From: Methanomicrobia archaeon
Lineage (GTDB): Archaea > Methanobacteriota_B > Thermococci > Methanofastidiosales > NM3
Direction of reading: 5' to 3'
DNA: 64,000 nt
Assembly: GCA_030603445.1 (NCBI GenBank)
Contig: JAUVXU010000001.1
Span: forward strand, 43,924-107,923
Part shown: positions 3,308 through 59,403 of the stretch, in pieces
How positions within the stretch are numbered: the stretch's first letter is position 1
Layout: every line of letters begins with the position of its first letter
The notes under the pieces: generated by a model
The model's database searches: none
What the model was told of the DNA's origin: nothing
The model's input: only the letters and a program-made list of their open reading frames with translations
Translations under genes and position numbers: made by a program

Positions 3308-3332
3308 TTTGCAGTGGAAACGAAGGGGTATG
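3308..3332 (+). repeat. Isolated ORB-like element (TTTGCAGTGGAAACGAAGGGGTATG), near-identical to the ORB at oriC (28218–28245)
   Basis: It matches the oriC ORB at 28218–28245 at 18 of 19 core positions. It sits in a 430-bp AT-rich spacer about 95 bp downstream of tRNA-Ser. Confidence 0.6.
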
Positions 3333-3637
3333 AAATGATACTCTTCATTCCAATGAGCAGCTTCTTTTCCATGACATTATATGATATATTTATGCATAAA
3401 ATGCCATATCCAATTCGTGCCGTGAAAAACAAGGGATTAAATATAAATAATACCCTATAAAACTAAATCTATGGAACATGAAAAATTATTTATGGGGTGT
3501 GTTGCAGGCGGTATTATTTTAGGAATAATACCCTTTGGTTTTGAGTACAAGGCAATTGCCGTAGGTGTAGCAATAGGTTTGATTTTCTTTATGCAGATGA
3601 GAAATTATATTGACTGAAAAATTCTCCGATAGGTTGC

Positions 3638-4171: not shown

Positions 4172-4473
4172 CGCTTTTTGTTGTAGTAGGTTTTCTTGTA
4201 GGCAACGATAAAAGATCGGCCGTCAATATCTTCGTTTGCTACCACATAATCCATTGTAAACGAGTCTTCCTCTTCGCCCCGAACTGTTAGAACACTGTCT
4301 TTTGATTCTACAATAGGAAATCCGTTTTTATGAAAATATTCCCTCAATAATGGCTCTTTATCAGCTGGCACTCTAAGCGCCACCGTACCTGTGCATGAGG
4401 AATAAAGCTCCTCAATGTCTTTTGTGTTTGCCAATAGGCGCCATGTCATGTCGCAACTTTCGCCTAACATCAA
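4162..4473 (-). CDS. Hypothetical protein (103 aa)
   Basis: ORF overlapping the next gene by 10 nt. Function unknown. Confidence 0.4.
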   Translation of the reverse strand: MMLGESCDMTWRLLANTKDIEELYSSCTGTVALRVPADKEPLLREYFHKNGFPIVESKDSVLTVRGEEEDSFTMDYVVANEDIDGRSFIVAYKKTYYNKKRWE

Positions 4474-4581
4474 AACAAATCATGTTTGATAAATAAAAAT
4501 CTAATGCGATAGAAGGCATTTGTTATATCTGCCGGTCTTGATCCTTTCATTATTTATGATAAGAAATAATAACTTTCTAGC

Positions 4582-6133: not shown

Positions 6134-7432
6134 ATGGCAAAAGAAAAACCACACTTAAATGTAGCATTTATTGGTCACGTTGACCACGGAAAGTCTACAA
6201 CTGTCGGACAGTTGCTGGTCCAACATGGTGACATTAGGGAAAATATAATCAAAAAGTTCGAGGATATGGGCGAGAAAGGTAAGACCTTTAAATTCGCATG
6301 GGTAATGGACAACCTCAAAGAAGAGCGTGAGCGGGGCGTGACAATCGACTTGGCTCATAAGAAGTTCGAGACAGATTCAAAGTACATCACGATCGTGGAC
6401 TGTCCAGGACACCGTGACTTCGTCAAGAATATGATCACTGGCGCCTCACAAGCTGATGCAGCCGTTCTTGTCGTTGACGCAAAAGACGGTGTAATGCCGC
6501 AGACGAAGGAACACGTCTTCTTGGCCAGAACGCTTGGTATCAAGCAACTCGCAGTTGCTGTAAACAAAATGGATGTAGTTGGCTACAAAGAAGAGAGGTA
6601 TAACGAGATAAAGGATTCTGTTTCAAAATTAATACGTGTTGTAGGCTTCAAGCCCGATGAGACACTATTTATTCCTATCTCCGCATTCGAAGGGGACAAT
6701 GTAACTAAATCTTCAGATAATCTATCCTGGTATAAGGGCAAGACTCTTCTTGATACCATAGACTCTTTCAAAGAGCCTTCAAAACCAGTTAACAAGCCCC
6801 TTAGGCTTCCGGTGCAGGATGTATTTACTATAACCGGCGTAGGGACCGTCCCTGTTGGCAGAGTGGAAACAGGCATAATGAAAATAGGGGACAAAGTGAT
6901 TTTTGAACCCGCATCAAACATCCTTGGTAAACCAGTAACTGGTGAAGTAAAGACTGTTGAGATGCATCATGTTACCTTAAAGCAAGCAGAGCCTGGGGAC
7001 AACATAGGATTTAACGTACGAGGCGTCGGAAAGAAGGACATCAGGAGAGGCGATGTTTTAGGACACGTTTCCAAACCACCAACGGTCGTAACACCAAAGG
7101 ACACATTCAGGGCGCAGATAGCCGTTCTCACCCACCCAACAGCCATCACCGCAGGATACACCCCGGTGTTCCATGCATATACTGCACAAGTAGCCTGCAC
7201 ATTCGAGGCACTTGTCGCAAAACTCGATAAGAAAACAGGCGGTATAGCTGAAGAGAATCCAAAATTCTTGAAGTCTGGCGACGCCGCAATCGTTGAGATA
7301 AGGCCAACAAAGCCAATGGTGATTGAGAACTACAAGGAACTCCCAGAAATGGGTCGATTTGCTATACGTGATATGGGTACAACAGTTGCTGCAGGTATGT
7401 GCATCGCTATTCACAAGGGTGGCAAGTACTAA
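6134..7432 (+). CDS. tuf: Translation elongation factor EF-1 alpha (aEF1A)
   Basis: The GTPase motifs are present ([24 protein letters not shown]), with the domain II/III conservation of archaeal EF-1alpha. There is a GGAGG Shine-Dalgarno 8 nt upstream. Confidence 0.97.
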
Positions 7433-11587: not shown

Positions 11588-12525
11588 TGGTTAGGCAAAA
11601 TTTGAAAAAACAAACACTTTTAAATAATGATAATTATGGCAATTTTATGAAAGCGGAATTCTTTTTACAACAGATTAAAAATGAGTTTCCACAAGTAGAG
11701 TGGAAAAAATATCGTATACTTACACATGGTTGGGATCATGTAGTTATTGTTTTTGATGAAAAACTCATTTTTCGCTTCCCAAAAGATAAGGAGTATAAAG
11801 AAGAATTCAAAAATGAAATACAACTACTTAGTTATCTGAAAAAAAGAATAAAAGTTGGTATCCCAGAATATACTTATGTATCTAAAGATAAATCACTTGC
11901 TGGATATGAAATGTCGAATGGTCGAGAGCTTAAATCTTCTCACTTCAAACGTTTTACAGGCTCGGAAAAAGAACTGTTTGCTAAACAAATGGCTGATTTT
12001 CTTACAAATCTACATGCAACACCAAACTCAGCCATTTCAAAATTCAATATAAGTGTCAATAATCCAAAAAAAGACTATAACGAACTAGTTAGCAATACAG
12101 AGAAATTTCTTTTCCCTCGCATCAATAAAAAAGAAGTTTCGGTAATTGAAAAATATTTAGATGAATTAAAAGTCACTCTCGATCATAGCAACTATCCAAA
12201 TGTGCTAACACATAATGATTTAACTTGGGAGCATATTCTTTGGAATAAAGATAATAATAAAGTAAATATTATTGATTTTAGCGACCGCACATTTGGAGAT
12301 CCAGCAATTGATTTCGCAGGTTTATGGGAGTATGGACAAATATTCGTCAATAGAGTTTATGGCTTGTATAAAGGCAAAAAAGATGACCAACTTTTACATA
12401 GATCACAATTGTATTTCAAAAGAATCCCGCTTTTTATAATGAAAGATGCTCTTGATGGTTATCCATGTACTTTTAAAGAGGGATATGAAATGTTTAAGAA
12501 AAGGTATAAAATTGCTAAAATTTAA
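11587..12525 (+). CDS. Aminoglycoside/antibiotic phosphotransferase (APH)-family small-molecule kinase
   Basis: The catalytic loop is HNDLTWEHIL (the HGD-type Brenner motif) and the Mg-binding motif is IIDFSD. The N-lobe is Lys-rich. The gene is AT-rich and bacterial-like. The start is either GTG at 11587 or ATG at 11647. Confidence 0.75.
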   Translation: MVRQNLKKQTLLNNDNYGNFMKAEFFLQQIKNEFPQVEWKKYRILTHGWDHVVIVFDEKLIFRFPKDKEYKEEFKNEIQLLSYLKKRIKVGIPEYTYVSKDKSLAGYEMSNGRELKSSHFKRFTGSEKELFAKQMADFLTNLHATPNSAISKFNISVNNPKKDYNELVSNTEKFLFPRINKKEVSVIEKYLDELKVTLDHSNYPNVLTHNDLTWEHILWNKDNNKVNIIDFSDRTFGDPAIDFAGLWEYGQIFVNRVYGLYKGKKDDQLLHRSQLYFKRIPLFIMKDALDGYPCTFKEGYEMFKKRYKIAKI

Positions 12526-12695
12526 TAGGGATGTATTTATTTTTTCAAACTCAAGGGGGCGTTGCACTTCACTCTCCCATATTTTGCTCCACTGCGTTCC
12601 GCAAAACATTGCATATACTGAAACGTTATATGAAATTCAGGATTCCGCCTTTAAAGGCAATAAAATTTATAAAATTACATAATTAAGTTAATAAT

Positions 12696-13130
12696 ATGGT
12701 CTACAAACATACGCAAATTGGATATCTAATAATTATCGCATTAATTATTCCATTATTGATATTATTTTTTGTTATGACCATTGCTGAATTTATCAAAATT
12801 TTACCAATTACATTTTCCATTTTATTAATAGCTTTGGCATTATTTCACTCATTAACAGTAGAAATAGATAAAACAAGACTTGTTATTAAGTTTGGTTTGG
12901 GAGTTATAAATAAAAAATTTATTTTAAAAGATATTGAATCGTGCCATGCTGTGAAAAATTCTTGGTATTATGGTTGGGGAATTAGGAGAACCCCTCATGG
13001 TTGGTTGTATAATATTTCTGGTTTATCAGCCGTTGAGATACAGATGAAAAATGGTAAAAAATATAGAATAGGCACGGATGAACCTAAAAGCTTGGAACAC
13101 GCAATTACACAAACAATTAAACAAACCTAA
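12696..13130 (+). CDS. Membrane protein with a C-terminal bacterial-PH-like domain
   Basis: Two N-terminal TM helices, then …WYYGWGIRRTPHGWLYNISG…VEIQMKNGKKYRIGTDEP…, which resembles bPH/YdbT-type domains. Confidence 0.5.
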   Translation: MVYKHTQIGYLIIIALIIPLLILFFVMTIAEFIKILPITFSILLIALALFHSLTVEIDKTRLVIKFGLGVINKKFILKDIESCHAVKNSWYYGWGIRRTPHGWLYNISGLSAVEIQMKNGKKYRIGTDEPKSLEHAITQTIKQT

Positions 13131-17294: not shown

Positions 17295-18319
17295 CCCCCT
17301 ATAGCTGAAAGCCACAGTCTTATCCATTCGTCTAGTGAAGATTCTAGCTGTGTGCGGTCCAGTGGGAGGATGTTATCGGTAGTTTCAACTATGCTAAAGG
17401 AGCCTGGCAGCTGGACACCCGGATTTACAGGCATCATGAACTGCGTGAGCGGAAGCTCCCTCTGGAACTCTTCGCTAATCATGAAGTCGATGAACTTTCT
17501 TGCAAGATCGCTATGTGCTGCACCATTCACGATGCCGGCCCCTTCGATCTGAAGAAATCCGCCTTCCTCAAAAATTACTCCTTTATACCTATTCGTATCC
17601 TCAAACTCCAGATGGTAAGCGGGGCTTGTGGAATAACTCACCACGAGAGGGGCCTCGCCTTCCAGAAACATCCCATAATATGCCGTGCTCCAACTTGGCG
17701 CAACTGTAAGCAGGCTTTCTTTAATAGATTCCCAATAAGCAGGGAATTCATCGCCGTATGCTGCCACGGTCCAGAGCAGAAACGAAAGTCCGGGCGATGA
17801 TGTTCTGGGGTCCTCGACGATAAGCTTGCCTTTCCACTTCTCATCCTTAAGGTCCTCAAAGCTTCTTGGTGGCTCGTCAATAACTTCAGAATCATAGATT
17901 ATAGACATGAATCCGTAGTCGTATGGAGTAACCCTCCATTCTTCATCCATTATCAAATATGCAGGTATCATGTCATATTCTTTTGGCTTATAACTTTCCA
18001 AAATATTGTGTTCTAAGACACGATACATCTGCAAATCGTTTATACCAAGCAAAATATCTGCCTTTGGATCATCCTTTTCCAATATTGCCCTTGATATCAT
18101 ATCCCCGGAACTTCCCATAGAAACGATGTTGACTTTAACGCCATGCTTTTCCTCAAACATAGGTATGACCATTGGGCCTGGGCCCCAATCAGATACAAAA
18201 CTGTCGTAAGTGTAGATAGTAAGCTCGGAGCTATCATCTCCTGTTATACATCCGCATAGAAGTACAACGCATATTAACGGAATAGCTAACAACTTTTTCA
18301 TAATATCACCATTACCCAT
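17291..18319 (-). CDS. ABC transporter substrate-binding lipoprotein, thiamine/Fe3+ (ThiB/FbpA) family
   Basis: Signal peptide plus a lipobox-like LLCGCITG. It has a family-1 solute-binding fold and is the first gene of the operon with the duplicated permease. Confidence 0.7.
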   Translation of the reverse strand: MGNGDIMKKLLAIPLICVVLLCGCITGDDSSELTIYTYDSFVSDWGPGPMVIPMFEEKHGVKVNIVSMGSSGDMISRAILEKDDPKADILLGINDLQMYRVLEHNILESYKPKEYDMIPAYLIMDEEWRVTPYDYGFMSIIYDSEVIDEPPRSFEDLKDEKWKGKLIVEDPRTSSPGLSFLLWTVAAYGDEFPAYWESIKESLLTVAPSWSTAYYGMFLEGEAPLVVSYSTSPAYHLEFEDTNRYKGVIFEEGGFLQIEGAGIVNGAAHSDLARKFIDFMISEEFQRELPLTQFMMPVNPGVQLPGSFSIVETTDNILPLDRTQLESSLDEWIRLWLSAIGG

Positions 18320-18540
18320 TTATAAAATAAATAATCCATTTATAAATCTTGTGATTAATATGCTATCAAATAGAAAAATATAATTTAAAATAAAGGGCAA
18401 ATAAGCAAAATATCCACATCCGGGTGTTGTTTCAAATCTTAAGCATTTTAAGAGATGCTAGTAAATACGTGCAAAACTCTTTCATTGATTTACTTACTTT
18501 TTTCGAAAAAATATTAACTGCAGATAAAGCGGACTATCGT

Positions 18541-19779
18541 TTAGCTTAGTCTTTCATTAATGGTTTTTAAGTTATAAAGAATAATTAATTGAAGCACTTG
18601 ATTTAAGCTATTATCATTTCTTTTTTTTGCACCTTTTGTTGAATCAAGATATTGTTCTAGAAGCCCTAAGGGAATATCAAAAATAGGGACACCTTGGGTC
18701 CTTAACAAATGAAACGTGATTAATCTTGTTGTCCTGCTGTTTCCATCTTCAAAAGGATGAATCTGCTGAAACTCATTATGAAAATATGCTACAAAGTCAA
18801 GAATTTTTGTTAATGTGTTTTTCTTTACTCTAAACTCATTATATTTTTTTATTAAAATATTTAGTTTAGGTTCTATTTCTTCGACTTTTGCAACTTTAAA
18901 ATAAGGTTTGCCTTTTATATAAACAGGAAGATCCCTTATTTTTCCTGCAATATCATCTCTATGTTGCATTGCCAAATAATGATAACTAGTTATAGCATTT
19001 TTTGTAAGTGGCATGTTGTTTAATGCATCCTGAAGCATTTTTTGCATAGCTTTCTGATAATTTTTTACTTCTTCAATACTTTCAACACTTAAATTTTTAG
19101 GAACAATATAATCTCTGAGAAGTTTAATTGTGTCTGGAAGGGTGATGGGGTTTCCTTCAAGAGTTAAACTATGATGAATAAAACTTATTTCAAACTCATC
19201 TATGATTTTTCTATAAACTATAGCATTTCTATCTTTTAACCTATTAAATTTTTTCAGTTCTCTTTCAATTTCACTGAAATATTCATTTTCTTTGTGTTTT
19301 ACAACCAATACTTTATGACTGAAATATGCAACTAAATTTTTTAGAAACGAATTATAAGGTATAATACCTATCAAGGGCTTTCTAGATATGATTATTAATA
19401 AGCCATTTTTTGCAAGAATATTTACATACTTTGAATACGTTCTTGGATGAATGTCAAAATCATTTATACCAAAATTCTTCTTTAAAAATCCCTTACTAAT
19501 AAATGCAGTAATATTCTCATCTAATAGCTCATTATAATTAATTTTGTTTGATACACAAAATTGAATCATCTGATACAAGAGATCATTTTTTTTGTTTCTT
19601 ATAACTTCAAACCCATGTTCCGACTTAGAAACCTGCTTCATTTCAGCCAGATCTGTCATTAACCTGTAAATGAATTTATAGTCCTTATCCAGCTTTTTAA
19701 AATAAGTGGCAACTTCTTTTGGTTGTATGATGCTGCCCTTGGAATACATAAACTCAAAAACATCGTATTTTGTTACCAT
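18541..19779 (-). CDS. Fic-family protein (putative AMPylator), 412 aa
   Basis: The Fic motif is HPFEDGNSRTTRL, a variant of HPFx[DE]GNGRxxR with a Gly-to-Ser change. An upstream inhibitory-helix-like SLTLEGN ([ST]xxxE[GN]) is present. There is an extra ~190-aa N-terminal region. Confidence 0.8.
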   Translation of the reverse strand: MVTKYDVFEFMYSKGSIIQPKEVATYFKKLDKDYKFIYRLMTDLAEMKQVSKSEHGFEVIRNKKNDLLYQMIQFCVSNKINYNELLDENITAFISKGFLKKNFGINDFDIHPRTYSKYVNILAKNGLLIIISRKPLIGIIPYNSFLKNLVAYFSHKVLVVKHKENEYFSEIERELKKFNRLKDRNAIVYRKIIDEFEISFIHHSLTLEGNPITLPDTIKLLRDYIVPKNLSVESIEEVKNYQKAMQKMLQDALNNMPLTKNAITSYHYLAMQHRDDIAGKIRDLPVYIKGKPYFKVAKVEEIEPKLNILIKKYNEFRVKKNTLTKILDFVAYFHNEFQQIHPFEDGNSRTTRLITFHLLRTQGVPIFDIPLGLLEQYLDSTKGAKKRNDNSLNQVLQLIILYNLKTINERLS

Positions 19780-19909
19780 GTACTACTTATAAGTGTTTTT
19801 TATTAATAAATTTTTCTATTTAGCACTAAAAAAAGATAAAATATCACTTTTTAATGCCATATGTAACTTATAGAATTTTTTGATTATCCTACCTCTATCC
19901 CTGGAGCGT

Positions 19910-20461
19910 TCACTTAATTATCCTGTGTATCATCTTAAACTCATCATTATTTGAAAGCTCTATGAAAGAGAATAGTGCTCCTTCCGTGCTTTCGATAATT
20001 GCTCCAGCCGTTTTCATGCGCTCAATCGCAATGTCTTTGTTTGAAAGCGTGCGTGATGTTACTGCATCAGCAACTACAAATACGTCGTATCCTTCCTCTA
20101 AAGCGTCAAGCACTGTCTTTGAAACGCATATATGGGCCTCAATGCCCACAACTAATAGTTGTCTCTTTCCCAGAGACTTGATCTTTTTCTTGAACGCCTC
20201 GTCCTTGAAGCAGGAAAATGCATCTTTCTCAAAATACGAATAAGATACCAAGGAATCCATTATCTCTGGGACTGTTTTGCCTACCCCCTTTGGATGCTGC
20301 TCCGTTAGGATTGTTGGAATATCAAGCACAGCGGTCCCATTAGCCAGTTTTACTATATTTTGAACTACCTCTTTTGGGGCGTCCAGTACTGGCATAAAGC
20401 GCTCCTGAACATCAATAATCACAAATACACAATCATCTCTTCTTAATTTTTTCACCATCAT
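19910..20461 (-). CDS. Isochorismatase-family cysteine hydrolase (nicotinamidase/PncA-like)
   Basis: The Asp/Lys/Cys triad is in context (VIIDVQ…, …K…, GIEAHICV). Confidence 0.85.
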   Translation of the reverse strand: MMVKKLRRDDCVFVIIDVQERFMPVLDAPKEVVQNIVKLANGTAVLDIPTILTEQHPKGVGKTVPEIMDSLVSYSYFEKDAFSCFKDEAFKKKIKSLGKRQLLVVGIEAHICVSKTVLDALEEGYDVFVVADAVTSRTLSNKDIAIERMKTAGAIIESTEGALFSFIELSNNDEFKMIHRIIK

Positions 20462-21672: not shown

Positions 21673-24600
21673 CTAAGGCCCGAAATCTGCAAGAGTCATC
21701 TGCGTTACCTTCTCCTTGAAAACAGATTCAAGCTCTTTTTCGATTATATCAATGCGCTGCGCTATGTATGGATCAATTTTATAATTCCTAATAATGTCCT
21801 TGCTAACCTGCAAATACTTCTCAACAGATCCTTTCGATACTGTGAGCACCAAGCGTCCACCATAACATTTGCTGCACTTTCCAGATAGGGGTATACGCCG
21901 ATATATAGTATTACAGCTAACACAGCGAAAAGTCTGCTTTGAAAAGGAGCGCAAATTCCCTATAATGTCTGGTATGAAATGTGAAACTATGACCCGTTGC
22001 GCCGTATCATCTAGATCCACAGCACGTATCTTGCGTGCAAGCTCCAGCTGCGCATCTATTTTTTCTGCCATAGATCCGAGTGTCTTGTATGCCGAGACGC
22101 TTGGGCCATCAGCTATATCACGTGTTGGGAGCGTGTAATGCAAATTGTAAAGTGCCTTTTCACTTCCTAAATGGTCAGCAACTGTTGGCAAAGAACACTT
22201 TGAGGGGTGGATGTACTGCTGCGTCTGTTCATAAAATGACACTGGATAACGCCTTGAGGTATCTATATTATATGCCTCCTTATCAATTTCCTCGGGGTCT
22301 ATTCTGGTAGTTAACACAAGAGGGGCATCCATCTTTCCTCCCCTATGCACAGGTAAGTAGTGTCGTGAAAAATTTAACAATGCATCTAACAAAAGAATGA
22401 TTGCATCCTCATCTCCATCACAATTGCGCCGCTTGGATGCGTGGAAGAATGGATGGGCATAGCCCACCTTTGCGCAAGTGTATCCTATTATGCGCCCTAA
22501 TACTCCTGCAGATGTGTGTGGAGCAAGCCCTATTACAAGATGCCCTACTAGATCTTCTCGATTTTCTGTATTGTAAAATCGTGGGAGTTTGTATACTCGC
22601 TCCAGTAAATCGTCAATAAAAGAACAGCATTTTAAGAGATAATCTGCGCCATTGTCCGAAACTATGATATCTTGCACCTTTAGCTCCACTACCTGTTCTT
22701 CACTTGAAAGTGGTTTACCTGCTTCATCAACAGTATACCCCAATTCGCGCATCTTGTTAACTGATGTACTTATCTCCTGAGGGGTAACGTGAGTAACAGG
22801 GACATCCGTGGCATCAAATCTCATGGTCCCGTCCTTGAACACATAAACATGATTATGTGCGCGTAGTATCGCCTTTTCTATGGGTTCCGGGAACTTTTCA
22901 CCAGACATCATGCCAATTACGCCCTTGACCTCTTTTGGCATTGCAATACTTAGGCCCGTGATAGCCTGATTCATCTCAGTCTTGATGTCGATGTTTTGGT
23001 AGGAATAATCGGACATATTTCTGCCGCAAGAAGGGCATTGTTCTATCTTGGTGTCAAATATCTTGCTCTTTCCCATATTGCAATGTTTATTGTTGCATGC
23101 TGCGAACGGAATTGTTTCTTCGCCGCAAGAGGGACATATAAGCTTCGGTATTATTTTCTTGCATGATGGGCACTGCCTGTTTGACACTTCAACGCGTACA
23201 TAGTTATTTTCCCTTGCCTTTATAAGTGAACGTGTCTTGCCGCCAGCATGCCCGACAGGTATCAGGCCATGTACTGGAGGAGACATTGTTCGCTCCTTTG
23301 CTTTCTCCGGGCGCCCCATTCTCCCGCCGACTGTTATAGGGCATTTTGAGCGCATCATTATTCCCAGTGTCTTGCCGATTGCTTCAATCACTATCTCGCT
23401 CTCTGACTTCCCCTCAAGGGATATTAGTGGTATAATATCATCAAATTTCTCTTTGTTGACGCATCTTCTGAAAGTCTCTGATTCTATTGTTATGCCATCT
23501 TTTGTTACAATATGCGGCAGACATATTTTTTCAAGCAGTTCCTTTTCCTTGGACAGAGGGAGCAATAGATTTTCGTTCTTTACAACGCCTTTAGAACACC
23601 AATCGATCAGTTCTCTAAGCTCCTCTAAATTAACATCTTCCCAATGGTATGTGAACCGAGGGTGTAAAGGTATCCCTAACTCCTCAGATATCTTCAACGC
23701 ATCCTTCTCACCAATATCAAATGGATTGTCTATGTATCTCTGATACTTTCTTGAGGCATCGGCTTCTTCAAGTTCCTGCACCCACCACTCCTCCACATAC
23801 CCTGAAGGCACTAGTACGTGGTTATTCTCCAAAAACTCGCCATACCCTATGAGGGCGTCCCCAAGAAACAGTATCTCGTCCACCTTGTCGCATATTTCCT
23901 GTGCCTGTTTTGAGGTCTCTACCCTAAGAACGCTGCCGTTTCTTAACTTTACGATCGGGCCCTCTATGGAGTCGACCGGGGCCGTGACGTTGGCCTTACC
24001 TGGTCTTTCGGTCTTCATCTGCGTCCCTATGGCAAGAAAAGAGTCCACTAAGTACATAGTTGCAGGATGTATGCCCCATCCTGCAAAACCAGTGTTTCGC
24101 GAACGCCCATATCTGATGCGCATCCCCTCTCTAGCCATTGGGTGTGAAAATACGGGTCTGCCGGCAATGATATCCTTTAGATATGTCCAGTTTTCAGAAA
24201 CGCCCCCAACTTCTGCCTTTTTGGACTTCTTACTAGTGCCTACATCCTTGAGCCAGTCCCATCCAACTATAGATACCTTGGACGTTATCTTTAGAACCTT
24301 AGCCGACTTTTGCAATATGCCCTCACAAAGTGCGAGCATTGCCCCTCCACGAAGGCAGTTTGTTTCAATGCGGGGCAGGTCCCTGTGTCCTGTTGCTTCA
24401 ATGTTATCGGTCTTCTCGCCAGTTATCTCAACCCCAATGTTCTCAAGAGCCATCTTCACGTCCTCGCTAGGTGGTTTATACTGCAGGTGAACGCTCCTGT
24501 TATACAACTCGACCTCTTCAATGAAACGTTCTACTTCGTCCTGAGTTACCTTATATGGATCTAGGTGTAGTTTCTGGCGCACGTAATCAGCTATTAGCAC

Positions 24601-25074
24601 CGCCATAGCAGCTGCAGTTCCGCCAGCAGAACGTATTGGGCCAGCAAAGTATATGGCAAGGTACTTTGAATTATCTGAGTTCTCCTTTATCCTTACGCTG
24701 GCTATTCCCTCAAGCGGGGCTGACACTATCCCCTCGGTAAGTATTGCTAGAGCTGTGCGTACTGCCTGCTCTGCTGCTTTTTCTATTGGAAGTGAATCAA
24801 ATTCTCCCTGGCAGATGCGGCCAGCAACCTTAAACGACACCTCCTCACGGGAGATGCCACTGTTGTCAAGTTCTCTAATTAATGCCGCAACGTCGCTTGG
24901 CCCTACAAGACTCTCCACTCGGCTTGCCATATCTTTTGCAACAGGGATCTCGACTTCAAACGATGGATCGCGCCCTTTTTTACGTGCATCTCTGGCTACT
25001 TTATAAAGGATCTCAGCCTCATGTTCTAGCAAAGAAAAATAAGATTCATACGACATTCCCATATCAGTCACCAA
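21673..25074 (-). CDS. polD2: DNA polymerase II (family D) large catalytic subunit DP2
   Basis: 1133 aa with the DP2 Cys clusters (CPSCKK…CPSCGEE, CVSCN…CSKCYGGRL). It is collinear with archaeal PolD large subunits. The size argues against an intein. Confidence 0.95.
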   Translation of the reverse strand: MVTDMGMSYESYFSLLEHEAEILYKVARDARKKGRDPSFEVEIPVAKDMASRVESLVGPSDVAALIRELDNSGISREEVSFKVAGRICQGEFDSLPIEKAAEQAVRTALAILTEGIVSAPLEGIASVRIKENSDNSKYLAIYFAGPIRSAGGTAAAMAVLIADYVRQKLHLDPYKVTQDEVERFIEEVELYNRSVHLQYKPPSEDVKMALENIGVEITGEKTDNIEATGHRDLPRIETNCLRGGAMLALCEGILQKSAKVLKITSKVSIVGWDWLKDVGTSKKSKKAEVGGVSENWTYLKDIIAGRPVFSHPMAREGMRIRYGRSRNTGFAGWGIHPATMYLVDSFLAIGTQMKTERPGKANVTAPVDSIEGPIVKLRNGSVLRVETSKQAQEICDKVDEILFLGDALIGYGEFLENNHVLVPSGYVEEWWVQELEEADASRKYQRYIDNPFDIGEKDALKISEELGIPLHPRFTYHWEDVNLEELRELIDWCSKGVVKNENLLLPLSKEKELLEKICLPHIVTKDGITIESETFRRCVNKEKFDDIIPLISLEGKSESEIVIEAIGKTLGIMMRSKCPITVGGRMGRPEKAKERTMSPPVHGLIPVGHAGGKTRSLIKARENNYVRVEVSNRQCPSCKKIIPKLICPSCGEETIPFAACNNKHCNMGKSKIFDTKIEQCPSCGRNMSDYSYQNIDIKTEMNQAITGLSIAMPKEVKGVIGMMSGEKFPEPIEKAILRAHNHVYVFKDGTMRFDATDVPVTHVTPQEISTSVNKMRELGYTVDEAGKPLSSEEQVVELKVQDIIVSDNGADYLLKCCSFIDDLLERVYKLPRFYNTENREDLVGHLVIGLAPHTSAGVLGRIIGYTCAKVGYAHPFFHASKRRNCDGDEDAIILLLDALLNFSRHYLPVHRGGKMDAPLVLTTRIDPEEIDKEAYNIDTSRRYPVSFYEQTQQYIHPSKCSLPTVADHLGSEKALYNLHYTLPTRDIADGPSVSAYKTLGSMAEKIDAQLELARKIRAVDLDDTAQRVIVSHFIPDIIGNLRSFSKQTFRCVSCNTIYRRIPLSGKCSKCYGGRLVLTVSKGSVEKYLQVSKDIIRNYKIDPYIAQRIDIIEKELESVFKEKVTQMTLADFGP

Positions 25075-26635
25075 AGTTCATTAAGACAAGGTTGTGTGTT
25101 TGTAAATTTATTATGGGGACCTTGGCCACATCAGGCGTTATGTTTCTCATCTTCTGAAAGCTCGTCTGTGACTGCCAACCACCAGAATTTATAAGAGTAA
25201 CGCCGCGATACACCCCATTTCCATTCATGTGGGTATGTCCTGTCTGAAAGATGTCTGGTGTTTCATCTATGCAAAGATAATCGCTGGTCTCAGGAATTAT
25301 CTGCGTCCCTTTCCCATATACAGGCGCAAGATGCCTCTTTCGCAGCATCTCTATCATGGGGGGGATAGGCTTGTTAATCTCGAAACCCGGGACTTGTGAA
25401 AGAAAGTCAAATATCGAGTCGCCATGGTACGCAAGACACTTTACGCCGTGTAGCGAGAAAAAAGAAGGATTAGACACCATATGTATGTTATCCATATCGT
25501 AAAGGTCGTAGGCAAACGCTTTTGGGATAGGTATTTGGGGATTCCCGCTTCTTGTGGCATCGTGATTTCCTGGCGATACTATAACTTCTATCCAATCGGG
25601 GAGATACGATAGCAGCTGTGCCGTTTTCTCATACTGTTTGTATATGTCAGTAATGCAGAGCTCCTTATCCTGATTGGGGTATATGCCAACCCCATCAACA
25701 ACGTCGCCGCAGATAACTATATACTTTATCTTTGATGCTATCTCTTGCTGTTTCTCGTTGCCTGTCTCTAGGCGCAGCCATTTGATGAAGCGCAAAAAAG
25801 ATTTTTCCATAAAATTATTGCTTCCAACATGCACATCTGAAGTGAACACCGCACCAATGTCATAAGGGGATACATTACGATTCCTGCCAAGTGCAATATC
25901 TGGGAATTCGAAGTTATTTGAAAATATTATATCTTCCCCCAACGCCCCAGAAACACCTATAACCTCATCGCACACAATGTACTTTGCACGTTCTAATAAG
26001 CGTTCCTTCTTCGTAGAAACAAGAACTTTTATCGTACCGGAAAGATCCTCAAGCTCCAACATTACGTTTCCGTTCTTAGTTGTCTTCTTACTTCGCACAA
26101 TACCGACTATCTTCACCTGCGATTTTAGTTCATTGGCCTTTGCATTTTTGATACTGACGAAATCGCGAAGTTCTCTGTGTTGCTTGAATATCTTAGATAT
26201 TCGTGTGTAACGATCCTTAAAAAGAGAGAGAAAATCCTCAAATTTTCCTTCAGAATCATCTTTTCCCGACACATCCTTAATAATCTTAATATCCTTATCT
26301 ACGTCCTTTGAAGGTATATGCTTTACTTTTATAGATTTTCTCTTTTTCTCGCTTTTGGGGACCTCGTCGGGAAGTTCTGCTCTTTGTTCCACTGATTCTT
26401 TTTGCTGTCCTGATTCTATACGTGGATAGAAATAATCCTCATAAACGTCTTTTGTAACAATAAATATATTATTTTTCTTCAAATGTGTCATGAATTCTAG
26501 AATAATATCTTCATTTGCTGCATCCTCAAGAAATTTAGCATATGCCTCTTCATTAAGAAGTACACCTTCGTCAAGGAACATGCCTGGTATGTTAATTTTA
26601 CAACTTTGTGTTGATGCCATAAGCCCTCTGCCCAC
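25064..26635 (-). CDS. polD1: DNA polymerase II (family D) small subunit DP1 (Mre11-like calcineurin phosphoesterase exonuclease)
   Basis: It has an OB-fold and a phosphoesterase domain with the metallophosphatase motifs (DVHVGS, GDVVDG, GNHD, GHTH). It overlaps dp2 by 11 nt and orc1 by 1 nt. Confidence 0.95.
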   Translation of the reverse strand: MGRGLMASTQSCKINIPGMFLDEGVLLNEEAYAKFLEDAANEDIILEFMTHLKKNNIFIVTKDVYEDYFYPRIESGQQKESVEQRAELPDEVPKSEKKRKSIKVKHIPSKDVDKDIKIIKDVSGKDDSEGKFEDFLSLFKDRYTRISKIFKQHRELRDFVSIKNAKANELKSQVKIVGIVRSKKTTKNGNVMLELEDLSGTIKVLVSTKKERLLERAKYIVCDEVIGVSGALGEDIIFSNNFEFPDIALGRNRNVSPYDIGAVFTSDVHVGSNNFMEKSFLRFIKWLRLETGNEKQQEIASKIKYIVICGDVVDGVGIYPNQDKELCITDIYKQYEKTAQLLSYLPDWIEVIVSPGNHDATRSGNPQIPIPKAFAYDLYDMDNIHMVSNPSFFSLHGVKCLAYHGDSIFDFLSQVPGFEINKPIPPMIEMLRKRHLAPVYGKGTQIIPETSDYLCIDETPDIFQTGHTHMNGNGVYRGVTLINSGGWQSQTSFQKMRNITPDVAKVPIINLQTHNLVLMNFGD

Positions 26636-27954
26636 TAAAGTTTATGCTGTATCGGGGGCACGTATGTAGCAACACGCTCTATTTTTCTGTCAAGCTCTAG
26701 AACACGTTTGGCTTGGGTGACCGGAACGCCCATACGTATTTCTTTAGTGCGGCCGTAGCGCCCTTTACTAACAACTTTTGCATTTAATATGCCTAGCATA
26801 TCTAGCTCGGATATAATATCAGATATTCTTCGCTGCGTCAATATCTCGCTTGAAGAAAGCTTACACAAGTCACGATAGACTGTATAGACCTCCCCAGTAG
26901 AAATTCCAGAAGGTTCATATTTTTCTAGTAATATACAGGAGTATAAAACAAGCTTTGATTGTATCGGCAGCGTTTTAACGACTTCTACTATTCTGTCCTG
27001 TTCTATATGGTCCTTTGCCTCACGTACATGTTTCTCGGTGATCCTTTTGCTTTTCTCGCGCTCTGCCAGTTCTCCTGCAACCCTGAAAAGATCAAGTGCA
27101 CGTCTAGCATCTCCATGCTCCTGGGCAGCATATGCAGAGCATAACGGTACTACACCAGTATCTATTAAATTAATTGACCTGCAAGACATCTTCGCACGTT
27201 GTGTGAGTATGTCCTGAAGCTGTATGGCGTCGTATGGCGGAAACACTATCTCCTCTTCCCCAAGCGAGCTTCGTACACGAGGATCCAGAAATTCTATGAA
27301 GTTGAGGTCGTTTGTTATACCGATAATGCTAACGCGCGCGTTAACAAGATCAGAGTTTACGCGTGTAAGGTTATATAATACTTCATCGCTCCCCTTTCGA
27401 AGCAATCTATCGATCTCATCGAGAACTATTATGACCAGGCGCTTTTCGCGATCCAGTGTTGAAAAGAACGTGTCATACACCTTATCCGTGGGCCACCCTG
27501 TTAAGGGTATGGACTGCCCAAAATATTCACCCAACTTCGCCAAAAGACGGTATTGTGTATCAACTATTTCACAGTTCATATAAATAAACCAGACTGGATA
27601 ATCATTATCAGTAACAGCAGAGTAGTCGGGAACTATATTATTGTCTCGAAAAGTCTTTGAAAAGAATTTCCCGCCGATCTTTTTGACAAGTGCTTTGCCA
27701 ATATGTTTAACAACAGCTGTTTTTCCAGTACCTGTCTTTCCATACACAAATATATTAGAAGGCGTTTCTCCCTTGAAAACGGATACTAGTATAGCTGCTA
27801 CCTCTTCTATTTGACGCTGTCTATGAGGTAGTTGATCAGGCGTATAAGAATGACGTAAAACCTCTTTATTAATAAAAATGCGTTCATTGCTTAAAAGTTC
27901 ATCAAATAAACAGTCTAGACTCTTTTGGTTGTTCATCATTGCACCTGGTTCCAC
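26635..27954 (-). CDS. orc1: Orc1/Cdc6 replication initiator
   Basis: AAA+ fold with Walker A YGKTGTGKTA, Walker B IIVLDEID, and a C-terminal winged helix. It is adjacent to the ORB-containing origin. Confidence 0.95.
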   Translation of the reverse strand: MEPGAMMNNQKSLDCLFDELLSNERIFINKEVLRHSYTPDQLPHRQRQIEEVAAILVSVFKGETPSNIFVYGKTGTGKTAVVKHIGKALVKKIGGKFFSKTFRDNNIVPDYSAVTDNDYPVWFIYMNCEIVDTQYRLLAKLGEYFGQSIPLTGWPTDKVYDTFFSTLDREKRLVIIVLDEIDRLLRKGSDEVLYNLTRVNSDLVNARVSIIGITNDLNFIEFLDPRVRSSLGEEEIVFPPYDAIQLQDILTQRAKMSCRSINLIDTGVVPLCSAYAAQEHGDARRALDLFRVAGELAEREKSKRITEKHVREAKDHIEQDRIVEVVKTLPIQSKLVLYSCILLEKYEPSGISTGEVYTVYRDLCKLSSSEILTQRRISDIISELDMLGILNAKVVSKGRYGRTKEIRMGVPVTQAKRVLELDRKIERVATYVPPIQHKL

Positions 27955-28292
27955 TAGAAACGGTCCTTTTTATATATTTCCTCTACCCCTTTGTTTCCAA
28001 TGGAAAATTATAATAGAACACCATATTATAAGATATTTTAAGATATTATTAAATGAGGCAGTCCTTCATTTCCAGTGGAACATTTTTTACGAAATTTGGT
28101 TGATTTGCGCTTCAGAAAATGTAATTGCGAAAACTATTTATAGATAGAATGAAATAAGCTTTTAGAACCTTTTTTTATTACAATAATAAAGCATTAAAAA
28201 ATCTTTTTATTATTCTACTCCACTGGAAACGAAGGGGTAGGGGTCAAGCATAATTTAAAAAGGTTTATTAACTAAAATATATTATAAATCGT
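27955..28292. other. Chromosomal replication origin (oriC): inverted ORB elements flanking an AT-rich duplex-unwinding element
   Basis: There is a mini-ORB GTTTCCAATGGAAAA (27993–28007). ORB at 28058–28082 reads, on the minus strand, GTTCCACTGGAAATGAAGGAC. ORB at 28218–28245 reads CTCCACTGGAAACGAAGGGGTAGGGGTC on the plus strand. Between them lies about 130 bp of more than 75% A+T. This is the canonical archaeal origin architecture directly upstream of orc1/cdc6. Confidence 0.8.
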
Positions 28293-28943
28293 ATGGACAA
28301 TTTGTCGGAGAAAAAATCCCTCAATCATTTTCTTCTTGTTCCACACGGCATTAAGTTATATTCTGGGAAGATAGGTTGTTCGAATATAGATGCATACGAT
28401 GCTACGTCTATCATATTTAAAAATATTTTAAAATGGATTTTTGTGGATTATAATATAAAGGAATTCTCATTTATTGGGTTAACATTAAATGCGATGCAGA
28501 CTAGAAGTGCGGAAGAATTAACACCAATTATGGAAGTCGAGTCCACAACATATGAAGATCCTGATTTAGTATCGTTTCTAATGGAGAATCAAATTAAGGT
28601 AACGTTCAAAGGAAACTTCTCTAAACTTCCAAAATATTATAGACGTGCCATGAAGAATATTACAAAGCTCACGGAAAATCACATGGCCCACAAGCTCAAT
28701 ATTTTAGTTGGATATGGCCTTGGCAAAAAAAGTCTTTTTTCAAAGATAAAAAAGAAGCTTTTTAGGGATATTTTTACAAGCGACCCTCCCGACCTAATGG
28801 TAAGCACTGCAGGTAGAGATTTTAGTATTATTTTGGAGAAAATTCCCAAGACTACAAAGACGCTAGTAGTTGATACTATTTTTCCAGAGCTAACGCAGCA
28901 GAATATAAAATCTTTTGTTGATTATTATTTTGCTACACCCTAA
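28293..28943 (+). CDS. Cis-prenyltransferase (UPPS)-fold protein lacking the catalytic DGNRRWA motif (possible non-catalytic NgBR/Nus1-like subunit)
   Basis: 216 aa, collinear with UPPS. HFLLVPHGIKLYSGK replaces H.AIIMDGNGRWA. FIGLTLNAMQTRSAEELTPIMEV corresponds to LTLYAFSSENWNRPAQEVSALMEL. The C-terminal DPPDLMVSTAGRDFSIIL corresponds to PVDLVIRTGGEHRISNFL. This is homology by eye only. Confidence 0.45.
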   Translation: MDNLSEKKSLNHFLLVPHGIKLYSGKIGCSNIDAYDATSIIFKNILKWIFVDYNIKEFSFIGLTLNAMQTRSAEELTPIMEVESTTYEDPDLVSFLMENQIKVTFKGNFSKLPKYYRRAMKNITKLTENHMAHKLNILVGYGLGKKSLFSKIKKKLFRDIFTSDPPDLMVSTAGRDFSIILEKIPKTTKTLVVDTIFPELTQQNIKSFVDYYFATP

Positions 28944-29028: not shown

Positions 29029-30396
29029 CTACTTAGTTGGGAGTAGTTCATTATTTACTATTTCTTTTATTTTTTTAAGATACTTCTTATATTCGTAATG
29101 TAACGTTTGTGATTTAAAATCAAAGTAAGGCTCTTCAAGTGAGATGCTTTGCTCAAAATAATACCGCATACGGGGAGCACGAGATTTCCTGCTTTCGTGG
29201 TATGAGATGGACCATACGTTGTATCGTATCTTTGAGTTAATAAAAGGGGTGTTTAGCAGTCCCATTATTCTTTCTTTATATAGGGGATGGCATCTTATGT
29301 GTACACACCAGTGATATTTACCGTAATCATTTTCATTTAGAGATTTGACGAAGGCGCCAGCTTTTAATGTGCGGGCGCATGCACCAACACTTGCGGCAAT
29401 CTTTTTCGTGTCATCGTAGTTTTTTCCTGTGAGCATTAGGAAGAAATGGGAGCATTTGTCCTTTGGCATTGGATAAACTGTGTAGAATTTGCGTACTATT
29501 CCTGCGTTTTTTAGTTTCTCATAAGAATATCGCCATGCATTATATCCAAATATGTAAGGGTTATTCCCTTCCTTGTCTATTATTTGTGCATCGTGCTTCA
29601 TTAGTCTAGATAAGTCTCCATTATAATATCCTGATTGTAGGTACATTATAAGGCGCGTATCTAGCAGCGATAGACGCAGGCGTTTTTCTTTAGTTGCCTC
29701 GAAAGCGGGTTTGAATGTTTTGTCAAAGTTTATTTTATCGACAACTAATGGCGTCTCACAAATGTTGTTAGGATTTTTCGTAAGATGGTATGGATTGTAT
29801 ATATCCAGTAATCCTTCTAGTTCAAATGCGGTGTAATAAAACAAGACCCCTTCGTCTTTTAGATAGTCCATAATTCGAATTATGGCTTTGGAGTCTGTGT
29901 TGTATACGGATACTAGCATCTCGTTGAATACGCCCTCTTCCAAAGGATAGAAGAAGCTCCAGCTATCAATAGTCTGCAGCAGCGAGATTAGGTAGTCATA
30001 AGTGTACTTCTTTGGGAACATTATGAAAAAGATTAACCTATTAACAGGATTCGTTGAGATCTTCGAAAGATCTATCCAATAGTTCGCTCCGGAAAGATAA
30101 CCTCTCTTCTTTAGTATGGTATTTTTCACGGTTGATATATAGTTGTAGTATTTAAATCCCACAAGTTTGGCTATTTCCCTGTCAGTTAGATCCGGCTGAT
30201 GTCCTAAGATATCTAGAATAGCCATTTGTGAATGGCTTAGCCTTTCATCTTTTTCTAACATTGTTATAGAATTTTCTAGAGATATCATATATATAATGCG
30301 CTCCCTTGTGGTATAGATGGAGGTGATAAGTTGCGTGGATTTCCGCCAGGTTTTGGGCCAGGATTTACTGCACCATGCATTGATGGAGACCCCCAC
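29029..30396 (-). CDS. Hypothetical 420–455-aa protein with an N-terminal winged-helix (MarR/wHTH-like) domain; last gene of the RPA operon
   Basis: A wHTH is present (LSHSQMAILDILGHQPDLTDREIAKLVGF). The remaining ~350 aa are Tyr/Lys-rich with no recognisable family. The alternative start MISLENS… is at 30288. Confidence 0.5.
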   Translation of the reverse strand: MGVSINAWCSKSWPKTWRKSTQLITSIYTTRERIIYMISLENSITMLEKDERLSHSQMAILDILGHQPDLTDREIAKLVGFKYYNYISTVKNTILKKRGYLSGANYWIDLSKISTNPVNRLIFFIMFPKKYTYDYLISLLQTIDSWSFFYPLEEGVFNEMLVSVYNTDSKAIIRIMDYLKDEGVLFYYTAFELEGLLDIYNPYHLTKNPNNICETPLVVDKINFDKTFKPAFEATKEKRLRLSLLDTRLIMYLQSGYYNGDLSRLMKHDAQIIDKEGNNPYIFGYNAWRYSYEKLKNAGIVRKFYTVYPMPKDKCSHFFLMLTGKNYDDTKKIAASVGACARTLKAGAFVKSLNENDYGKYHWCVHIRCHPLYKERIMGLLNTPFINSKIRYNVWSISYHESRKSRAPRMRYYFEQSISLEEPYFDFKSQTLHYEYKKYLKKIKEIVNNELLPTK

Positions 30397-31181
30397 TAGG
30401 CTAACATATAGTGGCCTATGGCTGGTTCAAATATATCTCCAAGTGATAACAGTGATTTAAGTGCTTCCTCAATTTCTGCAGTAGTGAACTTAGAATCTAG
30501 TTCGGCTATAAGTACATCTAGCTCAACGCCTTTCTCATCGCTTTGGAGACTCACTATTTTTTCTAATATTTGTTTTTTTACTATTTCAAGATTTTGTACA
30601 TTAACAGATTCGTCCCTTTCTTTTTCAAGGAGATAATCAAGTTCGTCAATCCCCTCTAATATCTCCGGGGCTATGTTTTCTTTACTTGCAAGTTCTAGGG
30701 CTTTTCTCATCGCTCCGGTAGTCTCCATCAACTCACGTGCACGAAAAGCTGTTTTCTTGAAATGCAGCACACGTGCTACTGTTTCAGCACGCGCCAAAAG
30801 AAGGAATTCCGGTGATACAGAAGTTACTGCTTCTATAGTGAGCTGCTTGTTGTCCTGCCATTCCCTAGGTTTTGCAATTAGTTGAACGAGCATGCCTCGC
30901 TCTAAAGGTTTTATAAGCTGGGCGCGCTCCCTAAACGCAGATCCCCACATCGTGGCAGTAGTATCATCAAGCAGTATTCTTGCATAAGAGTCGTCGTCAC
31001 TAAAATATGGCCCAGAAACTATTGTTGCAACGATTTTGGCACGGTGGATTTTTTCCCCATTTTTAGTAAGAATATAGTTTGGGTCAAAATCTCCCTCTTT
31101 TTCTACATAGTAGCCTGTTTGTAATTCTGATAGGTATACTCGTTTTGCTGGAAGTCGTTTCTTCATATACGTTCCTCCCAT
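30396..31181 (-). CDS. RPA32-like protein (OB-fold plus C-terminal winged helix)
   Basis: The OB core is RAKIVATIVSGPYF…ARILLDDTTATMWGSAF. A C-terminal acidic/helical wH-like region (…AEIEEALKSLLSLGDIFEP) follows. It overlaps the upstream gene by 19 nt. Confidence 0.6.
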   Translation of the reverse strand: MGGTYMKKRLPAKRVYLSELQTGYYVEKEGDFDPNYILTKNGEKIHRAKIVATIVSGPYFSDDDSYARILLDDTTATMWGSAFRERAQLIKPLERGMLVQLIAKPREWQDNKQLTIEAVTSVSPEFLLLARAETVARVLHFKKTAFRARELMETTGAMRKALELASKENIAPEILEGIDELDYLLEKERDESVNVQNLEIVKKQILEKIVSLQSDEKGVELDVLIAELDSKFTTAEIEEALKSLLSLGDIFEPAIGHYMLA

Positions 31182-31537
31182 TTTTTGATCTTGTGGTATA
31201 TATCCATATCCACAGAGGAGAAGTCTTGAATAACTTCTGCGTTTATGCCTTTTCCCATCTCAAAGGGCTTTCCGATGACCCGTATGACAGTTCCTATTTC
31301 ATAGAGTTTGTCTCCAAATATTGTTATTTGCCCTGTGCCATCGTCTATAATCATGGTGTAATCATTCGGGTTAGACCTAATTACAGTACCTATAACGGTA
31401 ACATAATCGTCTTCCTCTTCTATCTCCACTATTTCTTTTTCAACAGCAGGATTTCTACTCACCGTAATCACACTCCAGAATAGATAGGACGTTTTGTGTC
31501 TCTTTGTTAAATTCCAGGGGCCTAATATCCTGAACAT
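31163..31537 (-). CDS. Small OB-fold protein (RPA14-like or RPA-associated protein, COG3390-like)
   Basis: 124 aa; VTVIGTVIRSNPNDYTMIIDDGTGQITIFG is a classic OB-fold ssDNA-binding core. It overlaps the upstream RPA gene. Confidence 0.5.
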   Translation of the reverse strand: MFRILGPWNLTKRHKTSYLFWSVITVSRNPAVEKEIVEIEEEDDYVTVIGTVIRSNPNDYTMIIDDGTGQITIFGDKLYEIGTVIRVIGKPFEMGKGINAEVIQDFSSVDMDIYHKIKKWEERI

Positions 31538-32498
31538 TGATATTTATCCCAGTATACTCATTTTCTGAGATAGACCCTATAAGCACTATCTCCTTTCCAA
31601 GAATATCTGGTTTTTTCTCTAGGATGTACTCAAGGCCAGCGCTCTTTCCTGTGTATCCTGCATCAAGGTAGCCTTGTAGATCACGTGCTATGTTATCTGG
31701 GGACTCTCCGAGGAGTTCTGATGCGCTGTCGCTAAACAAGACGGCCCGGATGTGGTTTGTTCCATCATCTATTCCTATCTCAACTACCATGGCTTTCTTC
31801 GGAACAATGCGTATCTTGCAGTTATCACAAAAGAAGGAATCTTTTGATTTAATGGCCCGTTTATGACATGTAGGACAAGCATCATAGATAAGAAGACGGT
31901 ATATATTGGATATAGTCGCCCTTATCTCTATCGAATGTTCTCCTGGGGATATGTCTATTAGTTTTTTTCTCACTACATTTTGAGGGGATTTGTATGTAAG
32001 TTCTGGGAAATTGCTTTCATCCTCTACTATGATCCTGCCTTTGTAACCGAGGCGTAGTTGTGGGCCTGACGGCCCTTTTACAGATATGCAATTTATTAGG
32101 CGTATCACATTGCCATCATGAATTTTATTATATATGTCTAATTCTCTGTCCCATAAAGTCAAATATATCTTTCCTGTTGGGTCTCCAAGAAGGAATGATT
32201 GAAGCTGTTTTTTCTTCTTGTCTTCCTTGATGAATTCTTTTTTATCGAAAACTCGTAGCACACGAGTAATTAAATGTAGATTCATAAGCCCATCGGTTAT
32301 TTTATCGATTGTGAGCTCTGGCGATTCAACTGTTTCTGTTATGCCATGTTCTGCAGCAATTAGGGAGATTATTCCCTCATCAGTTATGTGGGACCCAATA
32401 GACTCCTTTTTTTCATTTATCATACGTTCTATGGCGTCTTCTCCGAATCCTTTTTCTTTAAGTAATACGACGAGTTCATCTATTCCCATCTTTTTCAC
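31455..32498 (-). CDS. rpa: Replication protein A, short form (N-terminal domain, one OB-fold, C4 zinc finger)
   Basis: The N-terminus (EGIISLIAAEHGI) resembles that of the second RPA at 38162. The OB fold is LTLWDRE…, and there is a Zn finger CPTCHKR…CDNCK. Confidence 0.7.
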   Translation of the reverse strand: MKKMGIDELVVLLKEKGFGEDAIERMINEKKESIGSHITDEGIISLIAAEHGITETVESPELTIDKITDGLMNLHLITRVLRVFDKKEFIKEDKKKKQLQSFLLGDPTGKIYLTLWDRELDIYNKIHDGNVIRLINCISVKGPSGPQLRLGYKGRIIVEDESNFPELTYKSPQNVVRKKLIDISPGEHSIEIRATISNIYRLLIYDACPTCHKRAIKSKDSFFCDNCKIRIVPKKAMVVEIGIDDGTNHIRAVLFSDSASELLGESPDNIARDLQGYLDAGYTGKSAGLEYILEKKPDILGKEIVLIGSISENEYTGININVQDIRPLEFNKETQNVLSILECDYGE

Positions 32499-59391: not shown

Positions 59392-59403
59392 TTGGTGTTT
59401 GTT

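Follow-up and report, generated by a model that had tools for sequence, protein, structure and literature searches.

Upstream of orc1 lies an intergenic region of 353 bp (27940-28292), bounded by orc1 on the minus strand and by a divergent plus-strand gene that starts at 28293. The question raised by this locus is whether it is the site at which the chromosome begins to replicate. The original prediction, made from the letters alone, had read it as a replication origin. We examined the reading in the window, i.e. the whole 64-kb stretch of DNA analysed, and in related loci. Judged by its sequence, the region is very probably a chromosomal replication origin of the oriC1 type, belonging to a Methanofastidiosa-like archaeon. 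Opposed origin recognition boxes (ORBs), an AT-rich tract, an adjacent gene of the Orc1-1 type and conservation, which characterize an Orc1/ORB origin at this level, were all found, and the predicted reading is upheld to that extent. In every feature, the region agrees with the oriC1/ORB class, which has long been known; its gene order is that of Thermococcales. A literature search yielded no paper on the origin of Methanofastidiosa.

Recognition boxes and AT-rich tracts upstream of orc1

Two full ORBs on opposite strands around an AT-rich stretch had been predicted, and both were recovered (Table 1). ORB1 and ORB2 each have a TTCCAnnGGAAA-type dyad followed by a G-string. ORB2 is inverted with respect to ORB1, with the dyads inward and the G-strings outward: the G-string of ORB1 is directed at orc1, i.e. 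away from the AT-rich tract, and that of ORB2 is directed away from orc1. A repeat search of the window returned the pair as an inverted repeat of 39 nt with 79% complementarity, the arms being 186 nt apart. Two further elements were additional to the original prediction: a degenerate middle ORB, oriented as ORB1 and 135 bp from ORB2, and a mini-ORB close to the orc1 start.

Table 1 Features of the putative origin and of the genes on either side, with positions in the window.
Feature	Position	Strand	Description
ORB1, full origin recognition box	27979-28006	-	TTTCCATTGGAAACAAAGGGGTAGAGGA; dyad TTCCATTGGAAA and G-string GGGGTAGAGG
ORB2, full origin recognition box	28217-28244	+	ACTCCACTGGAAACGAAGGGGTAGGGGT; dyad CTCCACTGGAAAC and G-string GGGGTAGGGGT
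Middle ORB	28054-28081	-	GTTCCACTGGAAATGAAGGACTGCCTCA; dyad intact, G-string decayed
Mini-ORB	27948-27961	+	GTTCCACTAGAAAC; 14 nt, without G-string; between orc1 TATA box and orc1 ATG
TATA box of orc1 promoter (probable, read from the sequence)	27969-27976	-	TATATAAA; 30-37 nt upstream of ATG
Main AT-rich tract, ORB2 to middle ORB	28082-28216	.	135 bp, 21% G+C
Second AT-rich tract, ORB1 to middle ORB	28007-28053	.	47 bp, 13% G+C
TATA-like near-palindrome	28134-28143	.	CTATTTATAG; conserved; about midway between ORB2 and middle ORB
TATA-like motif	28264-28271		TTTATTAA; conserved; ~25 nt before ATG of the divergent gene
orc1/cdc6 initiator	26635-27939	-	434 aa from ATG 27939 (ATG ATG AAC...); longest ORF from GTG 27954
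dp1, PolD small subunit	25064-26620	-	518 aa from conserved ATG 26620; NF003118, 488 bits (cut-off 445)
dp2, PolD large subunit	21673-25062	-	1129 aa from conserved ATG 25062; NF003103, 1552 bits (cut-off 1269)
cis-prenyltransferase-like gene	28293-28943	+	Pfam Prenyltransf, 41.5 bits; divergent; right boundary of the putative origin
Four-gene cluster beyond the prenyltransferase-like gene	29029-32498	-	
RPA41-like	31455-32498	-	weak to moderate RPA match
RPA14-like	31163-31537	-	weak to moderate RPA match
RPA32-like	30396-31181	-	weak to moderate RPA match
455-aa protein, 3' end of the RPA-like cluster	29029-30396	-	no Pfam or NCBIfam match

The 22-nt pattern TCCANTGGAAAYRAAGGGGTAG fitted both full ORBs with 0 mismatches, and 100 dinucleotide-preserving shuffles gave no match to it with up to 3 mismatches. 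The 11-nt core TCCANTGGAAA was found exactly at only three sites in 64 kb, all of them within the origin region; two of the three match on both strands, which makes five exact matches. For an independent score, a weight matrix of 28 columns was built from 20 ORBs of orthologous loci only, with the window left out. ORB1 scored 29.5 bits and ORB2 32.5 bits with this matrix, and the best scores in 200 shuffles of the window averaged 9.5 bits, with a maximum of 22.6 bits. The middle ORB, at 20.9 bits, is under the shuffle maximum and not significant by itself; it gains support because its position corresponds to that of an ORB in relatives.

Alternatively, the inverted repeat could have arisen by chance in a promoter region rich in AT, or the boxes could stem from an integrated plasmid or virus with an orc1 of its own. 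Many short repeats are present in AT-rich intergenic regions of the window, and Orc1 genes are common on archaeal mobile elements. Against a chance repeat, however, the shuffles gave no match to the 22-nt pattern, and the scores of both full ORBs with the independent matrix exceed every shuffle. Position and orientation of the ORBs are conserved over many lineages, the neighbouring genes are core chromosomal ones (PolD, RPA-like and EF-1 alpha at 6134-7432), and synteny is kept in five related metagenome-assembled genomes (MAGs). Shuffles, conservation and core-gene context together effectively refute an explanation by chance or by a mobile element, and we attach next to no probability to it.

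The inner region between the two full ORBs (28007-28216, 210 bp) has a G+C content of 23%, vs. 40% for the window, which places it in the lowest 1.1% of 210-bp windows. The larger of the two tracts beside the middle ORB is a candidate duplex unwinding element. For the smaller one, the 40-step stacking energy was -39.0 kcal/mol, vs. a window mean of -51.8 kcal/mol. AT-rich intergenic tracts of comparable instability are common within the 64-kb window, so AT-richness alone is not diagnostic of an unwinding element. An Rfam scan of the whole window returned tRNA-Ser only, and no structured RNA in the putative origin.

On the orc1 side, TATATAAA probably serves as the TATA box of the orc1 promoter. 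It lies ~33 nt from the ATG with the mini-ORB in between, and from this layout we infer a near-leaderless orc1 transcript, the promoter of which would be occluded when Orc1 binds. The mini-ORB is a probable autoregulatory site, at which Orc1 would repress its own operon, including both PolD subunits.

Conservation in related loci and the pair of boxes that flanks the putative unwinding element

Relatives of the window Orc1 were collected by a scan with one genome per species. Those with 83-87% identity came from MAGs labelled Methanofastidiosia, "Thermococci" or "archaeon". They were followed by a second tier of the Methanofastidiosa group (62-68%), and further out by Methanoperedens (~56%), then Thermoplasmata, Halobacteriales and DPANN lineages.

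The original prediction had tied its case to the presence of ORBs at orthologous loci, and there they were found. Upstream sequence was available for nine loci of the Methanofastidiosa group, which fall within L001-L011. All nine have a plus-oriented ORB 56-70 nt upstream of the orc1 start (offsets of the matrix hits) and a minus-oriented ORB at about -224 to -322, in the same arrangement with outward G-strings as in the window. The distant test set comprised 69 orc1 loci not used for the matrix (536 kb, cut-off 16 bits). Every one of the 157 matrix hits of at least 16 bits was upstream of orc1, and 145 of them were in the 600 bp immediately upstream, which represent 7% of the sequence scanned. 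The median offsets in these loci were -219 for plus-oriented and -492 for minus-oriented sites.

Among the Methanofastidiosa-group loci, L001-L003 share with the window a mini-ORB ~20 nt upstream of orc1 and an ORB at the middle position, and the block AAATATATAAAAAGGACCGTTTC is near-identical across them. The middle site is a full ORB in L002 (39.5 bits) and L003 (36.6 bits), and half of its dyad is lost in L001. L005-L011 have only two ORBs, ~135-145 bp apart, of which the proximal one abuts the orc1 TATA box. In an alignment of ten origins that starts at the distal ORB and runs inward, the first ORB of the other polarity is reached after a near-constant 135-145 bp. In the window, the ORB at that spacing is the middle ORB, not ORB1.

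This spacing bears on the question of which boxes flank the unwinding element. The region may be a true origin in which the element lies between ORB2 and the middle ORB, 135 bp apart, with ORB1 as an accessory or promoter-proximal box, like the extra ORB of Sulfolobus oriC1. We give this arrangement appreciable but tentative credence. Its spacing equals that of the sole ORB pair in L005-L011, the unit resembles the 130-bp ORB3-DUE-ORB2 of S. islandicus (PMC12141716), the conserved TATA-like motif is about midway between its two boxes, and in L002 and L003 the middle site is occupied by a full ORB. However, the middle ORB of the window is without a G-string and scores below the shuffle maximum (20.9 vs. 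22.6 bits). The loss of the G-string in the window and of a half-dyad in L001 suggests that the middle site is decaying, and ORB1 may have taken over from it.

A TATA-like motif was present near the inter-ORB centre in 10 of the 10 aligned Methanofastidiosa-group origins. It reads CTATAAAT(AG) in the group of the window (TATAAAT) and TATATAT or TATAAAG in the others. That the motif of the window (CTATTTATAG), midway between the opposed ORBs, is a required origin element seems to us unlikely. TBP or a nucleoid protein could bind to it, which would make it the positional equivalent, in Euryarchaeota, of the Sulfolobus ucm/UBP system located between the two MCM hexamers. In the AT-rich tract of the window, no match was seen to the Sulfolobus ucm motif ATTATACAAAC, to which UBP binds; the TATA-like motif at the tract centre is similar to ucm in position and differs from it in sequence.

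The ORBs might instead be mainly operators through which Orc1 controls orc1-dp1-dp2, at a site that fires rarely or never, with recombination-dependent initiation as in some Thermococcales. The position of the mini-ORB, between the orc1 promoter's TATA box and the ATG, would agree with such a role, and so would the proximal ORB that abuts the TATA box in L005-L011. In T. kodakarensis and T. barophilus, an oriC/Cdc6 locus much like this one is deletable and sees little use in certain conditions (PMC5663688, PMC11005403). T. kodakarensis grows without Cdc6 and oriC (PMC5663688), and T. barophilus combines origin-dependent and recombination-dependent initiation (PMC11005403). With this precedent, sequence conservation does not prove use in vivo; by the same token, a flat marker-frequency profile alone would not disprove an Orc1-binding origin. 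However, the distal ORB of opposite polarity is kept in 9 of 9 close loci, 135-145 bp from the nearest proximal-side ORB and with AT-rich DNA between them. Promoter control alone needs no such spacing, and the conserved opposed arrangement therefore counts against a purely operator function. A coding-independent step in GC skew, compatible with the site (see below), would also point to long-term use as an origin. We judge the operator explanation improbable and continue to read the region as an origin.

Gene order was conserved to different degrees. Among L001-L012, the loci in which dp2 adjacency was checked, orc1-dp1-dp2 is kept in L001-L004 and L012. The adjacency of dp2 is absent in L005, L007, L008, L010 and L011, all with downstream sequence present, and orc1-dp1 is kept in these. 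On the other side, orthologues of the prenyltransferase-like gene, 62-74% identical, are at the corresponding place in L001-L003, and L002 and L003 have the RPA-like cluster together with the prenyltransferase-like gene beyond the origin.

Replication genes and GC skew around the site

The genes downstream of the ORB pair had been predicted as orc1, dp1 and dp2, in that order, and this was confirmed by NCBIfam models, with all three proteins above the respective cut-offs. Orc1 matched NF001625 with 592 bits (cut-off 501) and TIGR02928 with 430 bits, and it has the Pfam domains Cdc6_C, Cdc6_lid and AAA. It is encoded by the single initiator gene within the window. Among solved structures, Orc1 is nearest to S. 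solfataricus Orc1-1 (2QBY_A, E 1e-107) and to A. pernix ORC1 (2V1U_A, E 2e-97), both crystallised on ORB DNA. From these similarities, the initiator of the window is assigned to the Orc1-1 class.

Orc1 aligned with 2QBY_A in two stretches, query residues 20-92 and 119-408 against chain residues 5-77 and 80-368. Conserved in the alignment are "TQRR" of the winged helix (wH) and "TG" of the AAA+ initiator-specific motif (ISM). With the chain numbering taken as 11 below the protein numbering, an offset derived in this analysis, these correspond to the positions R341 and G120, which are listed as contact or specificity positions (PMC3089459). Between the two stretches, residues 93-118 (~27586-27663, minus strand) contain an AAA+ insertion of ~24 residues relative to S. 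solfataricus Orc1-1.

The three genes had also been predicted to overlap, by 1 and 11 nt. These overlaps hold for the longest ORFs only, which start at GTG 26635 for dp1 and TTG 25074 for dp2. In tblastn searches against five related loci, the alignments begin at residue 1 of the proteins read from ATG 26620 (dp1) and ATG 25062 (dp2). The latter ATG has a Shine-Dalgarno-like motif, GGTGA, 5 nt upstream. Small gaps after the stop codon occur in relatives as well, among them L001-L003; in L001, for example, orc1 ends at 1933, dp1 extends over 1948-3501 and dp2 starts at 3506. GTG 26635 and TTG 25074 are probably not the true starts. From the conserved ATGs, the genes are separated by gaps of 14 nt (orc1/dp1) and 1 nt (dp1/dp2), which leave no space for a separate non-coding promoter. 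A single operon is the natural reading of these gaps, and co-transcription of orc1-dp1-dp2 is very plausible.

Replication genes flank the putative origin on both sides, with PolD on one side and the RPA-like genes on the other. The 455-aa protein at the end of the RPA-like cluster has 48-49% identity to proteins at the corresponding position in L002 and L003, and possibly acts with the RPA complex as an uncharacterised partner.

GC skew was calculated along the window. The 1-kb normalised cumulative skew had its minimum at 28 kb, with a near-equal second minimum at 33 kb, and the minimum of the raw G-C count was at 32.5 kb. Gene orientation also switches near the site, and the skew was therefore split from the coding-strand effect. 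To the left of the site, the skew of the plus strand was +0.061 for plus-strand genes and -0.115 for minus-strand genes; to the right, it was +0.117 and -0.036, respectively. In a weighted regression with the break fixed at 28100, the terms were 0.084 for coding strand and 0.036 for side (F = 18.7, p ~7e-5), and the coding-corrected skew step across the site was +0.07. The residual sum of squares hardly varied as the break was moved from 25 to 37 kb, with a slight dip at 35-36 kb; over the 64 kb that the test spans, the break is resolved to about 5 kb at best. The sign change of the coding-corrected skew falls somewhere from 25 to 37 kb, compatible with an origin at the site without pinning it there. 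The cumulative GGGT/ACCC skew, by which the Pyrococcus origin was located, had no minimum at the site in the window.

Comparison with known archaeal origins and a possible mechanism

The oriC of Pyrococcus and other Thermococcales was reportedly studied by Myllykallio in 2000 and by Matsunaga in 2001 and 2007. As in the window, a single orc1/cdc6 gene adjoins the origin, with dp1 and dp2 after it. The oriC of P. abyssi has two long ORBs in inverted repeat, several 13-bp mini-ORBs and two AT-rich regions (PMC1904270), an anatomy equal to that seen in the window. The ORB dyad core TTCCAGTGGAAATGAA is common to both. The oligonucleotides bound in vitro by purified P. furiosus Cdc6, ORB1 and ORB2, contain GTTCCAGTGGAAATGAAACTCTGGGGGG (PMC1904270). 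They scored 21-22 bits with the local matrix, and the control oligonucleotide of the same study scored -18 bits.

The Thermococcales origins also differ from the window in several respects. The G-string of Pyrococcus is ~5 nt further from the dyad (GAAATGAAACTCTGGGGGG, vs. GAAACGAAGGGGTAGGGG in the window). The long ORB of Thermococcales comprises 34 bp, with the G-string ~8 nt after GGAAAT, whereas GGGG follows 3 nt after GGAAAC in the window, so that the window ORBs are outside this long form. Thermococcales have a second cluster of ORBs and mini-ORBs inside dp1 (PMC1904270). The dp1 gene of the window gave no matrix hit of at least 10 bits and no match to the core with up to 1 mismatch. In L001, a full ORB of 33.8 bits (2196-2223) is found in the dp1 linker, like the Thermococcales dp1 cluster. 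At the equivalent place in the window (26377-26398, minus strand), GAATCAGTGGAACAAAGAGCAG has only a faint, indel-bearing resemblance to the dp1 ORB, with a negative score. The gene on the far side is RadA in Thermococcus (PMC4640148), in contrast to the cis-prenyltransferase-like gene and RPA-like cluster of the window. DP1 and DP2 of the window, at 518 and 1129 aa, are shorter than those of Pyrococcus/Thermococcales.

The oriC1 of Sulfolobus and Aeropyrum is alike in its initiator, the window Orc1 being most similar to the 2QBY and 2V1U proteins. It is also alike in having opposed ORBs around an AT-rich element of ~130 bp and an extra ORB of the same orientation. Crenarchaeal ORBs have a short spacing between the dyad and GGGGT, and in this they resemble the window ORBs. 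In contrast to Sulfolobus and Aeropyrum oriC1, the window has a single initiator gene and an origin linked to the PolD genes. PolD genes are not known from Crenarchaeota.

In the oriC1-cdc6 loci of Methanoperedens, Halobacteriales and other Euryarchaeota (L013-L080), ORB clusters were found only upstream of orc1. Proximal sites were plus-oriented and distal sites minus-oriented, an arrangement shared with the window. These origins exceed that of the window in size, the distal ORB lying at ca. -450 to -530, and they have more proximal ORBs.

A mechanism can be drawn by analogy with Sulfolobus, Aeropyrum and Pyrococcus, from which we infer Orc1 binding, MCM loading, autorepression, co-transcription and firing. 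In opposed ORBs, one Orc1 monomer is bound per ORB with fixed polarity, and ORBs flanking an unwinding element have opposite polarity (PMC6742236, PMC12141716). The bound initiators face each other, and MCM is loaded onto the intervening AT-rich DNA (PMC6742236, PMC12141716). At the site in the window, Orc1 monomers would bind each ORB directionally, with the winged helix contacting the TTCCAnTGGAAA dyad and the G-string taken by the AAA+ initiator-specific motif. Because the G-strings are outward, the bound initiators would face one another across the AT-rich DNA at 28007-28216. ATP-bound Orc1 would then recruit two MCM hexamers onto this tract, which would melt, and replication would be bidirectional.

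If the region is the origin, the position of oriC is fixed for an uncultured, little-studied methanogen lineage (Methanofastidiosa/WSA2), and knowing it helps to orient MAG contigs, to estimate growth rates from coverage and to annotate. The order orc1-dp1-dp2 in the window and its five closest relatives, with orc1-dp1 alone further out, is a small synteny character that links the lineage to Thermococcales. To the mechanism of archaeal replication initiation, nothing new is added.

Elsewhere in the window, a solitary full ORB-like element, TTTGCAGTGGAAACGAAGGGGTATGAAA, is present at 3308-3335 (plus strand), 24.6 kb from the putative origin and ~95 nt downstream of tRNA-Ser(GCT) (3127-3213). 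Its score was 20.7 bits. It fits the 22-nt pattern with 2 mismatches, a tolerance at which 0 matches are expected by chance. No initiator gene was found near it, nor did a search turn up an att-like repeat of the 3' end of tRNA-Ser, which might explain an ORB at this place. The next three genes (3638-5781, minus strand) have no Pfam match. The element may be either an isolated site of Orc1 regulation or a relic. Low-G+C islands were seen at 12000-13000, 18000-20000 and 58000-63000 (28-32%, vs. ~40%). They may be recently acquired DNA, and the island at 18-20 kb carries a Fic/DOC-domain protein (18541-19779).
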